64,000 nucleotides of DNA, taken from NCBI GenBank assembly GCA_045603745.1, contig JAZUMQ010000049.1, forward strand, positions 518 through 64,517. Direction: 5' to 3'. Below the pieces are notes generated by a model, which saw only the letters and a program-made list of their open reading frames with translations, searched no databases and was not told the DNA's origin. Shown here one piece after another: positions 29,476-37,028 of the stretch (positions are counted from its first letter, which is position 1; the number at the start of each line of letters is the position of its first letter). The DNA is from Eubacteriales bacterium (GTDB lineage Bacteria > Bacillota > Clostridia > Oscillospirales > UBA644). Both the position numbers and the translations under genes were made by a program.

Positions 29476-29687
29476 GAAATAATCCCCTCCGGAGCGATCT
29501 CTCCGGTCATAATAGTTATAATAATTTATTATATCATAACATATTCTTCCTCGTTTGTCAAGGCAACAGGAAATTTTTTCAGAAAAGTGTCGAGGAGTTT
29601 TTTCAGTGCGTAAAAAACTATAAAAATCTCCCCGAAACAAAATCTGCTTCGGGGAGAAATTTTATGTTATCAAATAAATCTGCCGGG

Positions 29688-30851
29688 TCAGTGAATTACG
29701 CGAACGCGAATGACACCTTCCAAAGCTTTCATTGCCTCCACCGCATGTTCGGAGACGTGGGTATTGGTATCAATGATGGTATAAGCGTAATTGCCTTTGC
29801 TCTTGTTCAACAGGTTTTCAATATTGACCCCTTCGGCGGCAAGAAGCGTCGTCATCTGGGCAATCATGTTTTGTTGATTGAGGTGATGAATGGCGATTCG
29901 CATGGCACCGGCACGGGGGCAGGAGCAAGCGGGGTAGTTGACGCTGTTAACGATGTTGCCGTTTTCAATGTAGTCCACCAACTGCTTGGCAGCCATAACG
30001 GCACAGTTGTCTTCCGCTTCGGGGGTAGAAGCTCCGAGGTGGGGGATACAAACAATATTTTCCTCTCCGATGAGGGCATCGTTTGGGAAATCGGTCACGT
30101 AGCGAGAAACTTTACCGGACTTGGTAGCGGCAAGAATGGCGGCGTTATCGACCAATTCACCCCGAGCGGCGTTGATAATAACGACACCGTCCTTCATCTT
30201 GGCGATCATGTCGTCGTTAATGAATCCTTTGTTATCCTTCAACAGAGGAACGTGCAGGGTGATATAATCGGAAGTTTTGATCAGTGTATCCAGATCGTTA
30301 ACCCGAACCACGTGGCGGGACATAGACAAAGCGCTTTCGACGGACAGATAAGGGTCATAACCGACGACTTCCATACCAAGAGCGATGGCTGCGTTGGCAA
30401 CGCGAGCTCCGATGGCACCAAGACCGATGATTCCCAGAGTTTTTCCGGTAATTTCGGGGCCGACAAACTGGCTCTTTCCTTTTTCTACCAATTTACCGAC
30501 TTCGTCGCCCTTCCCTTTCAGGGTTTTGACCCAATCCATAGATTCGGCAATTTTCCGAGAACCGAGAAGAAGGGCAGCCATGACCAATTCCTTTACGGCG
30601 TTGGCATTCGCACCGGGGGTGTTGAATACAACGACACCCTGTTCCGCATATTTATCACAGGGAATGTTGTTGGTACCGGCACCGGCTCGGGCAACGGCGA
30701 TTACGTCGGCGGGAAGATCGTATTCGTGCATATTAAAGGAACGCAGCATAATCCCAACAGGATTTGCAACGTCGCTTCCTACGGTATAAGTATCGTCAAA
30801 AGCCACGTCAGCCTTAGGGCTGATGGCGTTGAGTGTAAGGATATTTTTCAT
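29688..30851 (-). CDS. serA: D-3-phosphoglycerate dehydrogenase with C-terminal ACT domain
   Basis: 387 aa. Rossmann motif GIIGLGAIGARVA, a 2-hydroxyacid dehydrogenase core, an ACT-like tail, and adjacency to serC. Confidence 0.85.
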   Translation of the reverse strand: MKNILTLNAISPKADVAFDDTYTVGSDVANPVGIMLRSFNMHEYDLPADVIAVARAGAGTNNIPCDKYAEQGVVVFNTPGANANAVKELVMAALLLGSRKIAESMDWVKTLKGKGDEVGKLVEKGKSQFVGPEITGKTLGIIGLGAIGARVANAAIALGMEVVGYDPYLSVESALSMSRHVVRVNDLDTLIKTSDYITLHVPLLKDNKGFINDDMIAKMKDGVVIINAARGELVDNAAILAATKSGKVSRYVTDFPNDALIGEENIVCIPHLGASTPEAEDNCAVMAAKQLVDYIENGNIVNSVNYPACSCPRAGAMRIAIHHLNQQNMIAQMTTLLAAEGVNIENLLNKSKGNYAYTIIDTNTHVSEHAVEAMKALEGVIRVRVIH

Positions 30852-30854
30852 GGT

Positions 30855-31931
30855 TTATTTGTTCTCCATTTCAAATTTCTTCATAAACTCAATGAGGGCT
30901 TTGACCCCATCAACGGGCATAGAATTGTAAATGGAAGCCCGCATACCGCCGACAAGACGGTGTCCCTTCAAAGAAACCAGACCGGCGGCGGCGGCTTCTT
31001 TGACGAACTTAGCGTCCATTTCTTCCGAACCCGTGACAAAAGGAACGTTCATAATCGAACGGTCTTTCACCTCAACAGGGTTGGTATAGAAAGAGGAATT
31101 GTCGATAAAATCATAAAGAAGACCGGCTTTGTATTCGTTGATCTTCTGCATTTCCGCAACACCGCCCATTTTCTTCAGCCAACGGAACATGAGCATAGAC
31201 ATGTAAATACCGTAACAGGGAGGCGTGTTGTACAGGCTGTTTTCCTTAGCCTGAACGGAATATTTCAGCATGGTGGGGCAGCAAGCCAAGGGCTCCTGAT
31301 CGTCCACCAGGTCCTTGCGAACGATAACCAAGGTTACTCCGGCAGGGGCAATATTTTTCTGAGCACCGGCGTAAATGACACCGAATTTGGAAACGTCCAC
31401 GGGTTCGCTGAGGATATTGGAACTCATATCAGCAACCAAACAATCCACTTCGGGGAACTTATTATATTTTGTTCCGAAGATGGTATTATTGGACGTAATA
31501 TGAACGTAATCGATTCCGTCACGGAAGGAAATCTTATCTACGTCGGGAATGTAGGTAAAATTCTTGTCCTTAGAAGAGGCGGCGATTGCAGCATCACCGT
31601 AAATTGTAGCCTCTTTTTGGGCCTTCCCCGCAAAGTTACCGGTTACGATGTAATCGGCCTTCTTGTTCTTCATCAGATTCAGAGGAACGGCGGCAAACTG
31701 CTGGCTTGCACCGCCCTGAACGAACAGGACGTAATAGTTGTCAGGGATATTCATCAATTCACGGAGTAATGACTGCGCTTCATCGTTCACTGCCTGAAAG
31801 GGTTTAGATCGGTGAGACATCTCCACGACGCTCATTCCGGTGCCGTTGTAGTCCAGCATTTCTTTCTGGCACTGCTCCAGCACTTCGAGAGGAAGGGTAG
31901 AAGGTCCGGCTGCGAAATTGTAAACTCTCAT
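30855..31931 (-). CDS. serC: phosphoserine aminotransferase
   Basis: MRVYNFAAGPSTLPLEVL...GMSVVEMSHRSK is the SerC N-terminus. ATG 31931 follows AGGAGA; the track start at 32003 was trimmed. Confidence 0.88.
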   Translation of the reverse strand: MRVYNFAAGPSTLPLEVLEQCQKEMLDYNGTGMSVVEMSHRSKPFQAVNDEAQSLLRELMNIPDNYYVLFVQGGASQQFAAVPLNLMKNKKADYIVTGNFAGKAQKEATIYGDAAIAASSKDKNFTYIPDVDKISFRDGIDYVHITSNNTIFGTKYNKFPEVDCLVADMSSNILSEPVDVSKFGVIYAGAQKNIAPAGVTLVIVRKDLVDDQEPLACCPTMLKYSVQAKENSLYNTPPCYGIYMSMLMFRWLKKMGGVAEMQKINEYKAGLLYDFIDNSSFYTNPVEVKDRSIMNVPFVTGSEEMDAKFVKEAAAAGLVSLKGHRLVGGMRASIYNSMPVDGVKALIEFMKKFEMENK

Positions 31932-32188
31932 ATCATTTCTCCTTTTCTGCCTTGCGGCAATCAATAATAGATTGATTATACACCCAAATGCAAAAAAATG
32001 CAAGTGGGTTGAGAGAAAAGTAATAATTTTGTAAAAATTAGGGCATTTTTCCGGAGAAAAGATGTATTTTTTTCATTCATTATGCAAAAATTCTGCATTT
32101 TATATTTTTTTAACATCATTTTGAATTCGTATAAATTTCAATTTTATGTTATTATGATAACAAACAAATACCTAAGGAGATGGAAACA

Positions 32189-32383
32189 ATGAAAGGAAAC
32201 TATTACCAACCTTTTTCTTTAAGAATTTCGGAAGAAATGCACTACAAACTTCGGGTCATCGCCGATGCACATAAGAGATCGGAAAATAAGGAAATCGAAT
32301 TTGTATTGGGCGAATACATCAAACAATACGAGAAAGAACATGGGATTATTCCGGAAGAACCCATAACAGGTGACGAAACTTGA
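32189..32383 (+). CDS. ribbon-helix-helix (Arc/MetJ-like) small DNA-binding protein
   Basis: 64 aa. The YQPFSLRISEEMHYKLRVIADAHKRSENKEIEFVL pattern is beta strand-helix-helix. The second ATG was chosen because AAGGAG abuts the first. Confidence 0.6.
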   Translation: MKGNYYQPFSLRISEEMHYKLRVIADAHKRSENKEIEFVLGEYIKQYEKEHGIIPEEPITGDET

Positions 32384-32703
32384 GTCGCAAGTGGATTCAA
32401 AATGTTTGCATCGTTCTGGTCTTTTTCTTGGGATTTGTAACGGTAATTATCCTCGGCGCAAACCAAGGCACAAAAAACTTCACCCCTGCAACCAATGGAA
32501 TTCCACTGAGCGAAAAAATCTCTTGGGAAGACGCTCTGCCTGACCCTTCGGAAGATCCGACAGTATACGTAACAAAAAGCGGAACGAAATATCATTTATC
32601 TTCCGACTGCTCCGGACTATCCCGGGCAAAGGAAATAATCGAAACGACCCGTTCTACCGCAATAGAAGAGGGAAAAGACCTTTGCAAGATCTGTGAAGAA
32701 TAA
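32380..32703 (+). CDS. membrane-anchored protein with C-terminal His/Cys motif (YH-x4-C ... C-x2-C)
   Basis: 107 aa. Its TTG start overlaps the upstream TGA. An N-terminal TM segment is followed by VYVTKSGTKYHLSSDCSGL...GKDLCKICEE. Confidence 0.55.
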   Translation: MSRKWIQNVCIVLVFFLGFVTVIILGANQGTKNFTPATNGIPLSEKISWEDALPDPSEDPTVYVTKSGTKYHLSSDCSGLSRAKEIIETTRSTAIEEGKDLCKICEE

Positions 32704-32736
32704 CATCTCCCCTTCTTTGATATAAATAAAACACCA

Positions 32737-32760
32737 AGGGGGCAGAACCATCTGCCCCCT
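32737..32760. terminator. bidirectional hairpin terminator
   Basis: AGGGGGCAGA-acca-TCTGCCCCCT. On the minus strand it is followed by TGGTGTTTTATTTAT. Confidence 0.6.
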
Positions 32761-33194
32761 GTATTACTTATTAATTTACCGAATCAAACGACGTTATAAG
32801 ATTTCGCCGCTTTGAATTAGCACATTGGACTGTACCTCATTTCAAAAATTCGGGTTTGCCGGATCGTCCGGACCATCGCACGGTTTGTGCGAAGAAAAAA
32901 CTACTTCATTGGTCTCAAGCCTCGTAAAGAAGTGATTTTTCATTGGGCAGGAATCACGAACCTTTTGTTCGGATCCCCAACTCATTCGGTCTGAAGCTTC
33001 ATGAACTTCTGCAGATTCATACTCCGTTTCCTTTCTCCGTTAAGGGAAGGGCGTGGGTGAGTATTTCAAGGGACGCTCCGCAATTTACGGACGCGACCCG
33101 ATTTACTTTTTCGGAATTTTCATCTTTCGTTCTCCTTCCGGGGAAACGATCGGTTTTATCGAGAGAATGTTTTCGATTTTGGGAAACCGCAACC

Positions 33195-33251
33195 CTTTGT
33201 CACGGCACCCAACTCAGATATTGGGACTTCTCATGATCCGGTTCTCCTTTC
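33195..33251 (-). repeat. copy B of ~57-nt imperfect direct repeat (SD + MRSPNI micro-ORF 33234-33214)
   Basis: CTTTGTCACGGCACCCAACTCAGATATTGGGACTTCTCATGATCCGGTTCTCCTTTC compared with copy A; roughly 80% identity by eye. Confidence 0.7.
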
Positions 33252-33290
33252 GGGGAATCCATGGGAGTAATTTTTTTCGGGACACCGGGC

Positions 33291-33350
33291 ACCTTGCCAC
33301 GGCAACCCAAATCAGATATTCGGACTTCTCATACTCCTGATCTCCTTTTC
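33291..33350 (-). repeat. copy A of ~57-nt imperfect direct repeat (SD + MRSPNI micro-ORF 33332-33312)
   Basis: CCTTGCCACGGCAACCCAAATCAGATATTCGGACTTCTCATACTCCTGATCTCCTTTTC. The micro-ORF differs from copy B by one synonymous base. Confidence 0.7.
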
Positions 33351-33437
33351 CAAGAAAGCAACTCTTCCGGCCGGCGTTGTCCATTCGACACGATGATGAG
33401 GATTTCCTCTGACCGGGGTTCTCTTCTTTGTGGTTTT

Positions 33438-33466
33438 ATTATAGCATACTTTTCTCTGGTTGTCAA
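33438..33466 (-). promoter_or_regulatory. near-consensus sigma-A promoter driving the ORF-less unit
   Basis: Minus strand: TTGACA (33466-33461), 17-nt spacer, TGcTATAAT (33446-33438). Confidence 0.7.
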
Positions 33467-33546
33467 TAGGTTTTTTGCAACTTCTTATATGTTGTACACA
33501 AAAGTTATAATAATCTTTTAAAATTTCGGTCAATATAAACAATAAT

Positions 33547-33596
33547 AAACCACTCCGAAACGAAATTCCGCTCCGGAGTGGTTTCATTTTATTTTG
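33547..33596. terminator. terminator after the SGNH hydrolase gene (bidirectional hairpin)
   Basis: AAACCACTCCG (33547-33557) / CGGAGTGGTTT (33574-33584), with T-rich sequence on both sides. Confidence 0.7.
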
Positions 33597-34217
33597 TTAA
33601 TTCAGAAGTTCGCGAAGATTCGGAAGAATAGCCTCCGCCAAAAGATCGTAGCCTTCCTTGAAAAAGTGAACCCCTCCCCCATCTTGCAAATTCGAGTGTA
33701 TTTCGGAAGGAGTATATAGGTCGAACACGGGACACCCCAATTTTTCCGCCACAGTACGAGCAGATTGATTCCGCGCCTGAACCCGTCGATTTCGTTCTGT
33801 ATCAGAAACGCGGGTGGTGAGAACTACGGCAACCGAAACGTTCAATCGATCCCGGATCGCCACAATCAACTTTTCCAGCAGTTTGGGGTAGTCGGAATCA
33901 TCTTTCAAATGCCAGCCGTGAAGTCCGTTATTCAAAAGAATCAAATTTGGCTGATGAACTTGACGGAACATCAAATCCAGCGTGGGAAGAAAGTAGGGAT
34001 TATCCAAAGCTTTGGACGTGGCAAGAGCATCGATATAAAACTCATTTTCCACCATTTTTTGCAACGAAGGACGGATACCGTCCCACGAGATGGAATCTCC
34101 GATATAGAAAACCCGCTTTGCGTCAAAGTTTTCCGTATGGGCGATCCACGTCCGATCCCATTCGTAACACTCCAAGGGAACCGAGGTTTCTTTATACTGA
34201 TAGGTCGAATCGCTCAT
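33597..34217 (-). CDS. SGNH/GDSL-family hydrolase
   Basis: 206 aa. Block I FYIGDSIS, block III LNNGLHGW and a C-terminal D..H-like region. Confidence 0.7.
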   Translation of the reverse strand: MSDSTYQYKETSVPLECYEWDRTWIAHTENFDAKRVFYIGDSISWDGIRPSLQKMVENEFYIDALATSKALDNPYFLPTLDLMFRQVHQPNLILLNNGLHGWHLKDDSDYPKLLEKLIVAIRDRLNVSVAVVLTTRVSDTERNRRVQARNQSARTVAEKLGCPVFDLYTPSEIHSNLQDGGGVHFFKEGYDLLAEAILPNLRELLN

Positions 34218-34220
34218 GGC

Positions 34221-36026
34221 TTATTTCTTATAAAGAGGTCCGTAGGTCTGACAAGCCCGATAATCCTGTCCTTCCTTATCCATACCGAAAGCGTTCCAAG
34301 CGGCGGGACGGAAGATTTCGGATTCAGGAACATTGTGCATACAAACGGGAATCCGGAGCATAGAGCACATGGTGATCAAATCCGCACCGATATGACCGTA
34401 AGAGATAGCACCGTGATTAGCGCCCCAGTTGTTCATCACGTCGTAAGCGGTGCAGAAGGGGCTTCCTTCTTTCCCGTCACAACGGGGAGCAAACCAAGTG
34501 CAGGGCCAGGTGGGATTGGTGCGTTCCATTAACGTATCGGAAACTTCGTCGGGCAGGTTGACCGTCCAACCTTCGGCAATTTGCAACACAGGTCCTAAGC
34601 CCTTGACAAGATTCAGACGGATCATGGTGCAGGGCATTTCGGCACGGGTGGTAAAGTGGCTGGAGAATCCGCCGCCCCGGAAATTGTCGAAACCGGCTTC
34701 GCACCAAACGGTAGCGTCGGTCATCTTCTGAATATCTTCGTCGGTGACTTCCCACCATTTTCTCATGATGGCGTTACCATTTTCATCTTTACATTCTCCG
34801 CAAGCGTCCAGGCAAGCGGCACCGGAATTGAGAAGGTGAATAATTCCGCCGTTTTCTTTGGCTTTTCCTTCCAAATCATAGCCGGTAACCCGCTTAGTGG
34901 CTTCGGGGGACCAATAGGTACGAACATCGGCGAAAATCTGTGCCCGATGGGTCAAAAGCCGCATAAAGAGCATTCCCAAGCCGTTAAGAACGTCGTTTTC
35001 AGTGGCAAGGGTGTAGGGTTCCCGTGCGCCTTCGTAGTCAAACGTAGAACTGAGCAGCGCTTCGGGATAGTCGCAGTTGGGCCAGTGGTCGGTCCACTGA
35101 CGCTGACCTTGGAATCCGCCAACGATGGCATTATGCCCGACCATTTCTTCTTCAAATCCTTCGGGGAGATTGGGGTTACCCGCCATCAAATCTTTGATGA
35201 TGCAATACATCTTAACGGTGAATTCCCATTGCTTTTCTTTCTGTTCGTCGGAGAACTTCACACATTCCGGATTATCGTCTCTCCCCTCTTTGCAATGTTC
35301 TTTCGTCCATGCAAGAGCCTTTTGATATTCTTCTTCGTTGTAAATGCCTTCTTCCATGCGGCGAAGAATTTCCACTTCGTCCACGGATTCGACTCTCATA
35401 CCAAGATAAGATTCGACGAAATCCTGATCCATGATCGAACCGCCGATTCCCATACACTGAGAACCGATCTGCAAGTAAGATTTTCCGCGCATAGTTGCAA
35501 CGGCAACGGCGGCTCTACCGAAGCGGAGCAGTTTCTCTTTCACGTCTTCAGGAATCTCCGTAACCTGATCCCGATCCTGAACTTCGTGACCGTAAATGCC
35601 GAAAGCGGGGAGTCCTTTTTGAGCGTGCGATGCAAGCACGGCGGCAAGATAAACGGCACCGGGACGTTCCGTACCGTTGAATCCCCAAACACCTTTGATG
35701 GTGTTGGGATCCATATCCATGGTTTCCGAACCGTAGCACCAGCAGGGAGTAACGGACAGGGTAATGTCGACCCCTTCTTTCTTGAACTTGTCGGCACAAG
35801 CGGCGGCTTCGGGAACACGACCGATGGAAGAATCGGCAATGACAACCTTAACCGGGTCTCCATTGGAGTAAAAAAGATTTTCCTCAAAAAGTTTTTTTGC
35901 AGCTTCGGCAAGACCCATGACCTGGCCTTCCAAGCTTTCACGAAGTTTCAACGGTCCCCGACGACCGTCAACAATGGGACGGATTCCGATTACAGGGTAA
36001 GAACCAACGTATCTGTTTTTTGCCAT
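34221..36026 (-). CDS. fucI: L-fucose isomerase
   Basis: 601 aa from ATG 36026 (SD GGAGG). [12 protein letters not shown]..., [15 protein letters not shown] and length are typical of FucI. The track start at 36077 was trimmed. Confidence 0.88.
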
Positions 36027-36070
36027 AACACATACCTCCGATGTTTTTTTCTTTAATATAATTATACCGC

Positions 36071-36099
36071 TTGACAAATGGTTTGTCTTGTATTATAAT
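36071..36099 (+). promoter_or_regulatory. sigma-A promoter of the AraC-family regulator
   Basis: TTGACA (36071-36076), 17-nt spacer, TATAAT (36094-36099). Confidence 0.65.
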
Positions 36100-36194
36100 A
36101 AGGGTAAAGTATAACAATTTCCGGATTTTTTTGCAAAAAAGGTCCTATTTTACCCTTTTGACGAAATTTTTTCCGGAATCAACCGGGAGTTTTT

Positions 36195-37028
36195 ATGATT
36201 TTTCATCTTTGCAGAGAGACTATTTCCCACAAAACAGAACAATTTCCCATGGCGTTTTATTCTGTAGACGAGAATCACCCTCGCTATCAGATGATACACC
36301 ATTGGCACCCGGAAACGGAACTTGTAACGGTACGACGAGGAAAATTAAGCCTGTCTATTGACGGAACTTCCGTAGAATTAACAGAAGGGCAATTCATTTT
36401 GATTCCTTCCGGAACGGTACATAGCGGAATTCCTGTAAAGTGTCATTACGAATGTGTGGTTTTTGACCGAAGATCCATTTTAAATCTTCTGAAAGGTCCG
36501 TGTTATCCCCAGATAAAACAATTTTTTACAACGCCGCGAATCTTATCCGGCACAACGGAATTGGACCGATGGTTTCAAGCCTTGCGAAATCCGGAATTTG
36601 GATTTGAAGCGGAAGTATTGAGCGCCCTCTACAAGCTGATTGCAAAATGGTTAAAAGATTCTCAGCACAACACGATGGAGCTCCCCCAGAGAAAGCCCAG
36701 ACTGATTCCCTTTGAACGGGCAGTATTGTATCTGCAAGAACATTTTTCAGAACAGATCTCGCTAAAAGACATCGCAAACGCAGCGGAACTGAGCGAAAAA
36801 TACTTCGGAGAATATTTCAAGAACGTCACCGGAGAAACCCCCATACAATATCTGAACAAATACCGAATCGAAAAATCGGCGGAGGCCCTGAGAGAAGATG
36901 AAAAATCCATCACCGAAATTGCCTTGGAATGCGGATTTAACGATTTGAGCTATTTTATCAAAACCTTTAGAAAACATTACGGTACGTCCCCGGGAAATTA
37001 CCGAAAGCAGAAAAAGAACGAACCGTAG
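36195..37028 (+). CDS. AraC-family transcriptional regulator (cupin + HTH), divergent from fucI
   Basis: 277 aa. The C-terminal AraC HTH contains SLKDIANAAELSEKYFGEYFK...GFNDLSYFIKTFRKHYGTSP. Confidence 0.88.
   Translation: MIFHLCRETISHKTEQFPMAFYSVDENHPRYQMIHHWHPETELVTVRRGKLSLSIDGTSVELTEGQFILIPSGTVHSGIPVKCHYECVVFDRRSILNLLKGPCYPQIKQFFTTPRILSGTTELDRWFQALRNPEFGFEAEVLSALYKLIAKWLKDSQHNTMELPQRKPRLIPFERAVLYLQEHFSEQISLKDIANAAELSEKYFGEYFKNVTGETPIQYLNKYRIEKSAEALREDEKSITEIALECGFNDLSYFIKTFRKHYGTSPGNYRKQKKNEP

Follow-up and report, generated by a model that had tools for sequence, protein, structure and literature searches.

A structured RNA of uncultured Clostridia with a serial array of conserved and probably translated micro-ORFs

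Introduction

What does a stretch of bacterial DNA specify when it runs from a strong promoter to a terminator and holds no gene of ordinary length in between? The question is raised by a locus on contig JAZUMQ010000049.1 of a Eubacteriales bacterium (GenBank assembly GCA_045603745.1; GTDB order Oscillospirales), of which we analysed the 64,000 nucleotides from position 518 to position 64,517, referred to below as the window. The element in question is an RNA unit of about 0.7 kb on the minus strand of the window (33466-32725), whose promoter and terminator were identified in silico. A first-pass annotation, made from the sequence alone, had described four very short open reading frames (micro-ORFs) within this unit, each led by a Shine-Dalgarno (SD) sequence, and had offered three explanations, namely a new structured RNA, perhaps a GGA decoy of the CsrA-sponge type; an array of translated regulatory micro-peptides; or a decayed gene remnant. 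Its promoter, terminator and four micro-ORFs were all borne out.

Comparison with related loci now gives good support for an RNA that is both structured and translated, and that consists of a 5′ domain, four modules in which SD-led micro-ORFs alternate with hairpins, a 3′ domain with two-codon ORFs, and a terminator. Here we set out the evidence for translation and for structure, and weigh what such an RNA may do.

Translation of the micro-ORFs

Relatives of the RNA were reached by three routes independent of the micro-ORFs: homologues of the flanking SGNH hydrolase, a pattern for the 3′ domain (outside the ORFs) that was scanned over one genome per GTDB species, and homologues of p107, a small protein encoded convergently beyond the terminator. 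Because the loci were found through flanking proteins or a non-ORF pattern, the micro-ORFs did not bias discovery. These routes gave 12 further loci (L001, L002, L003 (= L012), L006, L009, L010, L011, L013, L014, L015, L020 and L024), each with one copy of the RNA; below, "13 loci" means the window plus these 12 relatives, and alignment A3 comprises 11 loci. The named records are all metagenome-assembled genomes of uncultured organisms labelled Clostridia or Eubacteriales bacterium. Two of the record titles name water-deer gut, and the remainder stem from gut-associated metagenome projects.

Substitutions among these loci are overwhelmingly synonymous, and this holds in the ORF frame only. When distinct variant codons across loci are counted for ORFs 1-4, the ORF frame has 23 synonymous and 8 non-synonymous variants, compared with 2-13 synonymous and 28-46 non-synonymous variants in the five other frames (Fisher p 2e-5 to 3e-9). 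Variable columns number 5/34, 6/34 and 19/34 at codon positions 1, 2 and 3, respectively, and 268/531 outside the ORFs. The synonymous swaps extend to many residues, including AGA/CGA/CGC (Arg), AGT/AGC (Ser), CCG/CCC/CCA (Pro), AAT/AAC (Asn), ATC/ATT (Ile), CTT/CTG/TTA/CTA (Leu), CAG/CAA (Gln) and ACC/ACT (Thr). Moreover, the stop codons of ORFs 1-4 interchange between TGA and TAA and are never lost in any locus, and intact ORFs are present in 51/51 expected modules. These patterns strongly suggest that ribosomes decode the micro-ORFs and that selection acts on the peptides MRSPNI (encoded twice), MKIxKK and MNLQxFMKLQTE, in line with the second of the three initial explanations.

ORF1 (33312..33332, minus strand) encodes MRSPNI in every relative, and its variant codons across loci are synonymous in 5/5 cases. 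ORF2 (33214..33234, minus) encodes MR[S/N]PNI; the single non-synonymous change is S to N, giving MRNPNI in some loci, and the other variants include AGA to CGC, CCC/CCG/CCA, AAT/AAC, ATC/ATT and a TGA/TAA stop. In the window, ORF1 and ORF2 differ at one synonymous position, CCG/CCC, as had been reported. They lie within a direct repeat whose presence and 98-nt offset were confirmed, but which we measure as 44 nt at 86% identity rather than the roughly 57 nt at about 80% given earlier. ORF3 (33103..33123, minus) has the consensus M[K/R]I[P/A/D]KK (MKIPKK in the window), with a free fourth codon and a TAA or TGA stop. The longest, ORF4 (32982..33020, minus), has the consensus M[N/K]LQ[K/V/R]FMK[L/I]QTE (MNLQKFMKLQTE in the window) and shows 11 third-position changes, its leucine codons across loci being CTT, CTG, TTA and CTA, and its stop TGA or TAA.

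Such data are also what would be expected if the RNA were a polycistronic messenger for free, trans-acting micropeptides (fMRSPNI twice, MKIxKK and MNLQxFMKLQTE), which may target, for example, a cytoplasmic receptor, an enzyme or the ribosome, with the hairpins stabilising and insulating the mini-cistrons. This is the main rival of the cis-acting mechanism set out below, and we consider it possible but doubtful. Purifying selection on the amino-acid sequence favours it, as does the encoding of one peptide twice with independent synonymous divergence, which is expected for dosage; it would also accord with the very strong promoter and with the lack of a downstream gene in need of regulation. 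There is a eukaryotic precedent in the tal/pri RNA, which encodes several 11-residue peptides, and a bacterial one in the 14-residue leader peptide peTrpL, which acts in trans (PMC12612679). Position 4 of ORF3, however, varies between P, A and D, and the amino-acid changes at positions 2 and 5 of ORF4 preserve an RNA base pair (see below), and both observations count against it. In addition, we know of no free, unprocessed six-residue peptide with a function in trans in bacteria.

Two further SD-led ORFs, which had escaped the first-pass annotation, lie in the 3′ domain and consist of two codons each. Module 5 (32901..32923, minus) comprises GAGG, a spacer of 8-10 nt and ATG AAG TAG; this ORF is invariant, and its SD is kept in L006 and L011 though the spacer sequence differs. 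Module 6 (32817..32838, minus), for which the evidence is weak, comprises GAGG, 9 nt, a start codon, T[G/T/A][C/T] and a stop, with ATG or GTG as start, Cys, Phe or Tyr as the middle codon and TAA, TGA or TAG as stop across loci. Translation of these two ORFs is plausible, though weakly supported. ORFs 1-3 are thus six codons long and ORFs 5-6 two codons, the whole array spanning 2-12 codons, and the start codons of the six SD-start sites follow one another at intervals of 84-111 nt. Such an array is not expected by chance: five SD-led micro-ORFs occur in 708 nt, compared with 0.27 +/- 0.52 in dinucleotide shuffles (0/2000 reach five), and no denser stretch of SD-led micro-ORFs exists on either strand of the 64-kb window. 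A degenerate MRSPNI pattern has no further occurrence in the window (0.01 expected).

The earlier statement that nothing longer than 12 codons starts inside the unit does not hold, since two longer ORFs can be read mechanically on the minus strand, of 56 codons (33384-33214) and 47 codons (32985-32842). Their start codons are missing in relatives, and the unit is thus ORF-less in substance. Separately, a second GGAG abuts the start codon of ORF1 and of ORF4 (GGAGU-AUG; 33342-33333 and 33030-33021), and this GGAG is invariant in all loci though it lies too near the AUG to act as an SD sequence.

RNA structure

The aligned loci revealed conserved helices with compensatory changes. The consensus fold comprises 115 pairs in 18 helices, and 96.8% of cells are paired, compared with 41-53% when the partners are slid; pairs changed on both sides number 11, compared with 1-5 when slid, and 0/500 shuffles reach the observed values. 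Moreover, the predicted fold of the window RNA is more stable than that of shuffled sequences (z = -3.5).

In the predicted 5′ domain (33367..33416, minus; helices 2-3), the closing stem CCGGU/GCCGG encloses two hairpins, the first of which is conserved (GAGGAAAUCCUC). The closing stem carries a GC to AU compensatory change in L006 and L011. The second hairpin has a lineage-specific sequence that can fold in most loci, as read by eye and unscored in A3 (weakest in L001, with L015 left out).

Each of the four modules that follow is built to a common plan, in which the SD sequence pairs with a C/U-run in a small hairpin and a second, 30-nt hairpin of the form GGG...CCC with compensatory changes (H1-H4) stands behind the stop codon. 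In module 1 a U/C-run pairs with the ORF1 SD (33342..33357, minus; helix 4), and H1 (33279..33308, minus) has an upper stem that varies and stays paired. The ORF2 SD is sequestered in the hairpin UUCCCC-GAAA-GGAGAA (33242..33257, minus; helix 7), with a GNRA-type loop that is GAAA or GAGA, and H2 (33181..33210, minus; helix 8) has 11 pairs that are 100% paired. The ORF3 SD is likewise sequestered (33127..33149, minus; helix 9) under a loop that is mostly GAAA and is GGAA in the window, L013 and L010, so that the loops of modules 2 and 3 are mostly GNRA-type; H3 lies at 33070..33099 (minus; helix 10). Module 4 ends with H4 (32949..32978, minus; helix 14), in which 3 of the 12 pairs have changed on both sides. 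In 51/51 modules exactly 3 nt, of varying sequence, separate the stop codon from the hairpin behind it.

Within ORF4 the coding sequence itself appears to be folded, its start codon pairing with codons 5-7 (33000..33021, minus; helix 13; 7 pairs, 100% paired). Alignment columns 480 and 489, which are the third bases of codons 2 and 5, covary as U-G, U-A and A-U; position 5 is the one hypervariable residue of ORF4, and its covariation with the third base of codon 2 keeps the pair. An invariant 16-mer, CGTGATTCCTGCCCAA (32943..32958, minus), comprises the 3′ arm of H4 and the single-stranded UGCCCAA. It is unchanged in the 11 A3 loci, among which it is one of the longest invariant runs (equal to GGAAACGGAGTATGAA before ORF4), and has one mismatch in L024. 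We also considered whether the invariant CGUGAUUCCUGCCCAA might be a T-arm or otherwise tRNA-like, which does not fit, this stretch being the 3′ arm of H4.

The 3′ domain, to which the 16-mer, the two-codon ORFs and the terminator also belong, contains two hairpins with compensatory changes, CGCAC-loop-GUGCG and CCGGA-loop-UCCGG (32859..32891, minus; helices 16-17), which correspond to the small hairpins noticed earlier and are conserved. The fixed 3-nt spacing, the structured 5′ domain and a conserved region upstream of the promoter had, like the two-codon ORFs, not been noticed before. Neither the constant spacer length, nor the conserved 5′ and 3′ domains, nor the two-codon ORFs are explained by a messenger for free micropeptides.

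Transcription unit

The micro-ORFs and helices lie behind a sigma-70-type promoter, TTGACA-17 nt-TGnTATAAT (33438..33466, minus), whose hexamers are invariant in the 13 loci while its spacer varies. In the window the -35 hexamer TTGACA (33466-33461) is followed by a 17-nt spacer and by TGcTATAAT ending at 33438, which gives a score of 12/12 plus a TG extension and the sole 12/12 match within 32000-34300. The SGNH-hydrolase gene upstream has a terminator of its own (33584-33547), and the promoter follows shortly behind it. At the other end, an intrinsic terminator (32725..32760, minus; helix 18) with compensatory changes is common to the RNA and the convergent p107 gene; its hairpin (32760-32737) has 10 bp, of which 7 are GC, with a T-rich tail behind it. 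This arrangement strongly supports an independent transcription unit, with its own promoter and terminator, separate from the neighbouring genes.

The conserved region 5′ of the promoter (33467..33543, minus; about 77-95 nt) aligns in 13/13 loci despite the differing upstream genes. Its consensus is ATTGT..GACCgAAA ... TTTGTGTAyAA..TATAAGAA..TGCaAAAA, with TTGT-N2-ACAA-like inverted repeats and a TGCAAAAA box adjoining the -35 hexamer, and it is probably a regulatory site or an UP element. The sequence ATGCAAAAA is common to the RNA promoter and the promoter of arc, the Arc-like gene that precedes p107, with two copies upstream of the Arc-like gene (31988-31996 and 32082-32090). This might hint at co-regulation of the two, but the number of copies is not significant (3 in the window compared with 1.7 expected).

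Known RNA families and alternative readings

Like the first-pass annotation, which had named no matching class, we obtained no match at gathering threshold with the covariance models of Rfam 15, including OLE, GOLLD, ROOL, raiA, T-box, riboswitches, 6S, RNase P, tmRNA and CsrB/C. With the cut-off relaxed to E = 10, the matches lie mostly on the two terminators and their flanks, with a single one in the RNA body, at 14.3 bits where the gathering score is 40. ARAGORN detected neither a tRNA nor a tmRNA in the region. The first of the three initial explanations is therefore upheld as far as it proposed a new structured RNA, which has conserved helices and no Rfam match; its GGA-decoy version fared less well.

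A decoy would act by titrating 30S or 70S ribosomes, or an SD- or GGA-binding protein such as CsrA, through the six SD-like sites, with ORFs that release ribosomes fast. The six SD-start sites at intervals of about 84-111 nt, the minimal two-codon ORFs and the very strong promoter would all suit such a role, and GGAG (7 compared with 3.5 expected) and AGGAG (4 compared with 0.8) are enriched. The richness in GGA asserted earlier was not recovered, however, 17 copies being present and 17.4 expected, and the conserved GGAs are SD positions paired in stems with upstream C-runs rather than displayed in hairpin loops. CsrC, whose gathering score is 61, was matched only weakly, with 14.3 bits on one strand and 8.5 bits on the other, and both matches are limited to the terminator hairpin. 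A tblastn search for csrA in the window and the loci was negative, but these sequences are a small part of each genome and hence uninformative genome-wide. Nor would a decoy explain the selection on the peptides. We rejected the CsrA-sponge form on the grounds that GGA is not enriched and is paired in stems, and judge the decoy explanation as a whole to be unlikely.

The third initial explanation, a decayed protein-gene remnant, or likewise a functionless spacer, is so improbable that we give it next to no weight. In its favour one might cite public gene calls antisense to the RNA, of 243 aa in L002 (1497-2228) and 179 aa in L006 (9488-10027). These have no Pfam match, and long runs without a stop codon are found in each of the three antisense frames, with a frame and extent that change from one locus to the next. 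The antisense strand is pyrimidine-rich and hence stop-poor, which accounts for such spurious ORFs. (The same artefact is seen elsewhere in the window, in a 701-aa plus-strand ORF, 29664-31769, opposite the real minus-strand genes serA and serC.) Moreover, identity of the RNA to the window, with gaps as mismatches, is 92% for L013, 73% for L003 and 67% for L006, compared with 70%, 57% and 46% at third codon positions of fucI for the same pairs, which indicates that the whole RNA is under purifying selection. Conservation above that of neutral sites, which takes in promoter, terminator, helices and micro-ORFs, and the absence of any consistent ORF at this place in relatives, refute the remnant.

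The RNA is rare. A scan of JGI metagenome contigs with the 3′-domain pattern returned only two chance matches, L016 and L017, which are dissimilar to the RNA; blastn against phage and plasmid collections gave no match to it, and no instance of the degenerate ORF1 pattern was found in viral contigs.

Mechanism

Given an RNA that is probably both folded and translated, we tentatively favour, with somewhat less than even confidence, a mechanism in which the modules would be serial cis-acting ribosome switches of the leader-peptide kind, dependent on the nascent peptide, with the RNA's own 3′ domain as the read-out. The nascent hexa- or dodecapeptide would set the dwell time of the ribosome on or close to the stop codon, and a ligand, a drug or a ribosome-acting factor may matter here. 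With the stop codon in the A site, the base of the hairpin and the first P-site nucleotide are about 9 nt apart, which puts the hairpin near the point where the ribosome starts to unwind mRNA. Given the constant 3-nt spacer, a ribosome that dwells there would abut the hairpin and melt no more of it than the GGG:CCC base. Occupancy, added up over the modules, would then set the fold or stability of the RNA, chiefly of the conserved 3′ domain, which we take as the would-be effector because no coding gene lies downstream; the element would thus be a free-standing reporter of the state of translation rather than the leader of a gene. Two-codon ORFs are too small for a functional peptide, yet their SD, start and stop are kept, which speaks for action in cis. 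Moreover, stalling by so short a peptide has a precedent in the hexapeptide leader MsrDL (MYLIFM), which arrests the ribosome at its own stop codon and in which nearly every residue matters (PMC10314930).

Several observations weigh against this mechanism. There is no same-strand coding gene downstream, which leaves the RNA without the output that a leader peptide classically has. When ribosome-sized stretches were constrained to remain unpaired, folding yielded no conserved alternative helix that could serve as a relay. The peptides are polar or basic, unlike the hydrophobic leaders that sense macrolides. ORF5 shows no variation and the variation of ORF6 is compatible with chance; the family is known from only 13 loci in one narrow clade; and one of these, L015, lacks one MRSPNI module owing to a clean deletion that runs from module 1 into module 2. 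In addition, every step of the mechanism is inferred.

Two variants were considered and set aside. A relay, in which a ribosome on one ORF would free the SD of the next, was rejected after constrained consensus folding gave scattered, non-recurring long-range pairs. Bypassing or frameshifting that would join the ORFs was rejected because neither the 'AUC AUG' junction nor the -1 frame that follows AAA AAG is conserved in A3.

Taken further, the cis-acting mechanism would define a new class of riboregulator, in which an array of nascent hexapeptides senses the state of the translation machinery and lets dwell time determine how an RNA effector folds or how stable it is, without the participation of any protein-coding gene. 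The state sensed could be a drug, a metabolite or a factor in the tunnel or the peptidyl-transferase centre. We offer this extension as a speculative proposal and hold it loosely.

Comparison with known systems

The RNA is most like a leader-peptide sensor, minus the regulated downstream gene that defines one: of the features of leader-peptide attenuators it has an SD-led ORF that is probably under selection, and lacks the gene under control. The resistance leaders MsrDL, ErmDL/ErmCL, cat-86 and cmlA similarly have SD-led ORFs of about 6-12 codons in which the amino-acid sequence matters, with adjoining hairpins, and MsrDL has exactly six codons, as do ORFs 1-3 (PMC10314930). They are, however, single or at most double, lie upstream of the gene that they control, and work by a terminator/antiterminator or masked-SD mechanism, whereas the present RNA has four to six serial modules, no downstream gene and no detectable sequence similarity to them. 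With rnTrpL/peTrpL it shares a terminated leader RNA and a tiny peptide, each of which has functions beyond attenuation in cis (PMC12612679). Nevertheless, rnTrpL has one ORF, is still the leader of trp genes, belongs to Proteobacteria and has no homology with this RNA.

RNAIII/hld, SgrS/SgrT, SR1/SR1P and SR7 likewise have their own promoter and terminator and are structured and translated (PMC12612679, PMC7834092), and the present RNA, if translated as its codon substitutions suggest, formally qualifies as a dual-function RNA. Those small RNAs, in contrast, carry one ORF of 26-45 codons, and none has an array of ORFs of 2-12 codons (PMC12612679). A different kind of likeness exists with the insect tal/pri RNA. 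That RNA was also once thought to be non-coding and specifies several near-identical tiny peptides; it is eukaryotic, with 11-residue peptides, and unrelated, so that the comparison is one of analogy only. The bar minigenes of phage lambda and the E-peptide minigene of 23S rRNA have SD-led ORFs of 2-6 codons, as do ORFs 1-3 and 5-6, and translating them acts back on the translation apparatus itself, by way of peptidyl-tRNA drop-off or of macrolide resistance mediated by the peptide. Unlike the array described here, these minigenes are single, have unclear natural roles and are without conserved flanking hairpins. CsrB/RsmZ sponges and the OLE, GOLLD, ROOL and raiA RNAs resemble it as stand-alone, strongly expressed RNAs, repetitive or large and structured, some of them in Clostridia, but this RNA matches none of their covariance models and shows no GGA enrichment, and none of them is known to us to be translated.

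We found no description of such a micro-ORF array element in the literature, in searches that included MRSPNI, minigene arrays, micropeptide RNAs and ribosome sponges, and on the sequence comparison we rate it as a new kind of element. If translation is real, it would be the first bacterial orphan RNA known to us in which several conserved ORFs of 2-12 codons are interleaved with conserved structure, and it would show that unprocessed hexapeptides or their nascent forms can be under selection even where there is no regulated gene. Elements of this type would also be missed by gene finders, which either ignore the ORFs or call spurious antisense genes, as here, and RNA-motif pipelines would misfile them by treating the ORFs as non-coding.

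Neighbouring genes

Beyond the terminator, every locus with sequence there has convergent genes and no same-strand coding gene. The sole neighbour that is kept is p107 (32380..32703, plus strand), a small membrane-anchored protein of 107 aa, which is present in 12/12 RNA loci that continue beyond the terminator, the contig of L006 stopping at that point. Its N-terminal part forms a transmembrane helix, and its conserved C-terminal motif (YH..DC...C..C; in full, G.KYH...DC..L...K.I.T....A...GK..C..C) may be a metal site made up of one His and three Cys. The family has 7 members among 5.8 billion proteins (homologues P0121-P0127), p107 has no match in Pfam, NCBIfam, PADLOC or the PDB, and its AlphaFold model is too poor for use (pLDDT 53). 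An Arc-like ribbon-helix-helix gene usually precedes p107 and is absent in L011, and L021 has a p107 homologue without the RNA beside it. The synteny, set against these two loci, makes a functional link between the RNA and p107 possible.

One such link would be that the RNA is a cis-antisense or 3′-overlap regulator of the convergent arc-p107 operon, akin to a type I toxin-antitoxin system, in which the array tunes read-through of the shared terminator. The convergent placement of p107 directly behind the terminator in all 12 testable loci, even where the upstream gene differs, fits this explanation, as do its N-terminal transmembrane helix and the restriction of RNA and p107 to the same tiny clade. 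However, the two transcripts would overlap only at the strong bidirectional terminator, and p107, with 107 residues and a conserved soluble Cys/His domain, is unlike the small hydrophobic toxins of type I systems and has no match in PADLOC or toxin families. Together with L021, which has p107 and no RNA, and L011, which has no Arc-like gene, these points make such a regulator very unlikely in our view.

Upstream, the neighbouring gene varies among loci and encodes an SGNH hydrolase, a 188-aa protein, a GH20 protein, a beta-helix protein or a 607-aa protein. In the window (33597-37028) the RNA stands at the end of a fucose-utilisation cluster, with a divergent AraC-type regulator, L-fucose isomerase and an SGNH/GDSL hydrolase, and in other species different glycan-related genes occupy the position upstream. 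An exact look-up of the SGNH and Arc proteins of the window returned no record.

Loci with an altered or missing RNA

The deletion in L015 has left (L015:2000-2642) a single hybrid MRSPNI module, which joins the 5′ part of module 1 to the hairpin of module 2. The first hairpin of its 3′ domain is truncated too, and the remainder of the RNA is intact. In a related species without the RNA (L005:5640-6560 and L004:5640-6360), a promoter-like site followed by three to four tandem copies of the 5′ part of a tRNA (GGGGTGTGGCGCAGTTGGTAGCGCGC...) occupies the syntenic gap behind the SGNH gene, and only the last copy seems to be whole. Further downstream, L004 carries two phage-type integrase genes, and the tandem tRNA parts look like the product of repeated integration at a tRNA attachment site.

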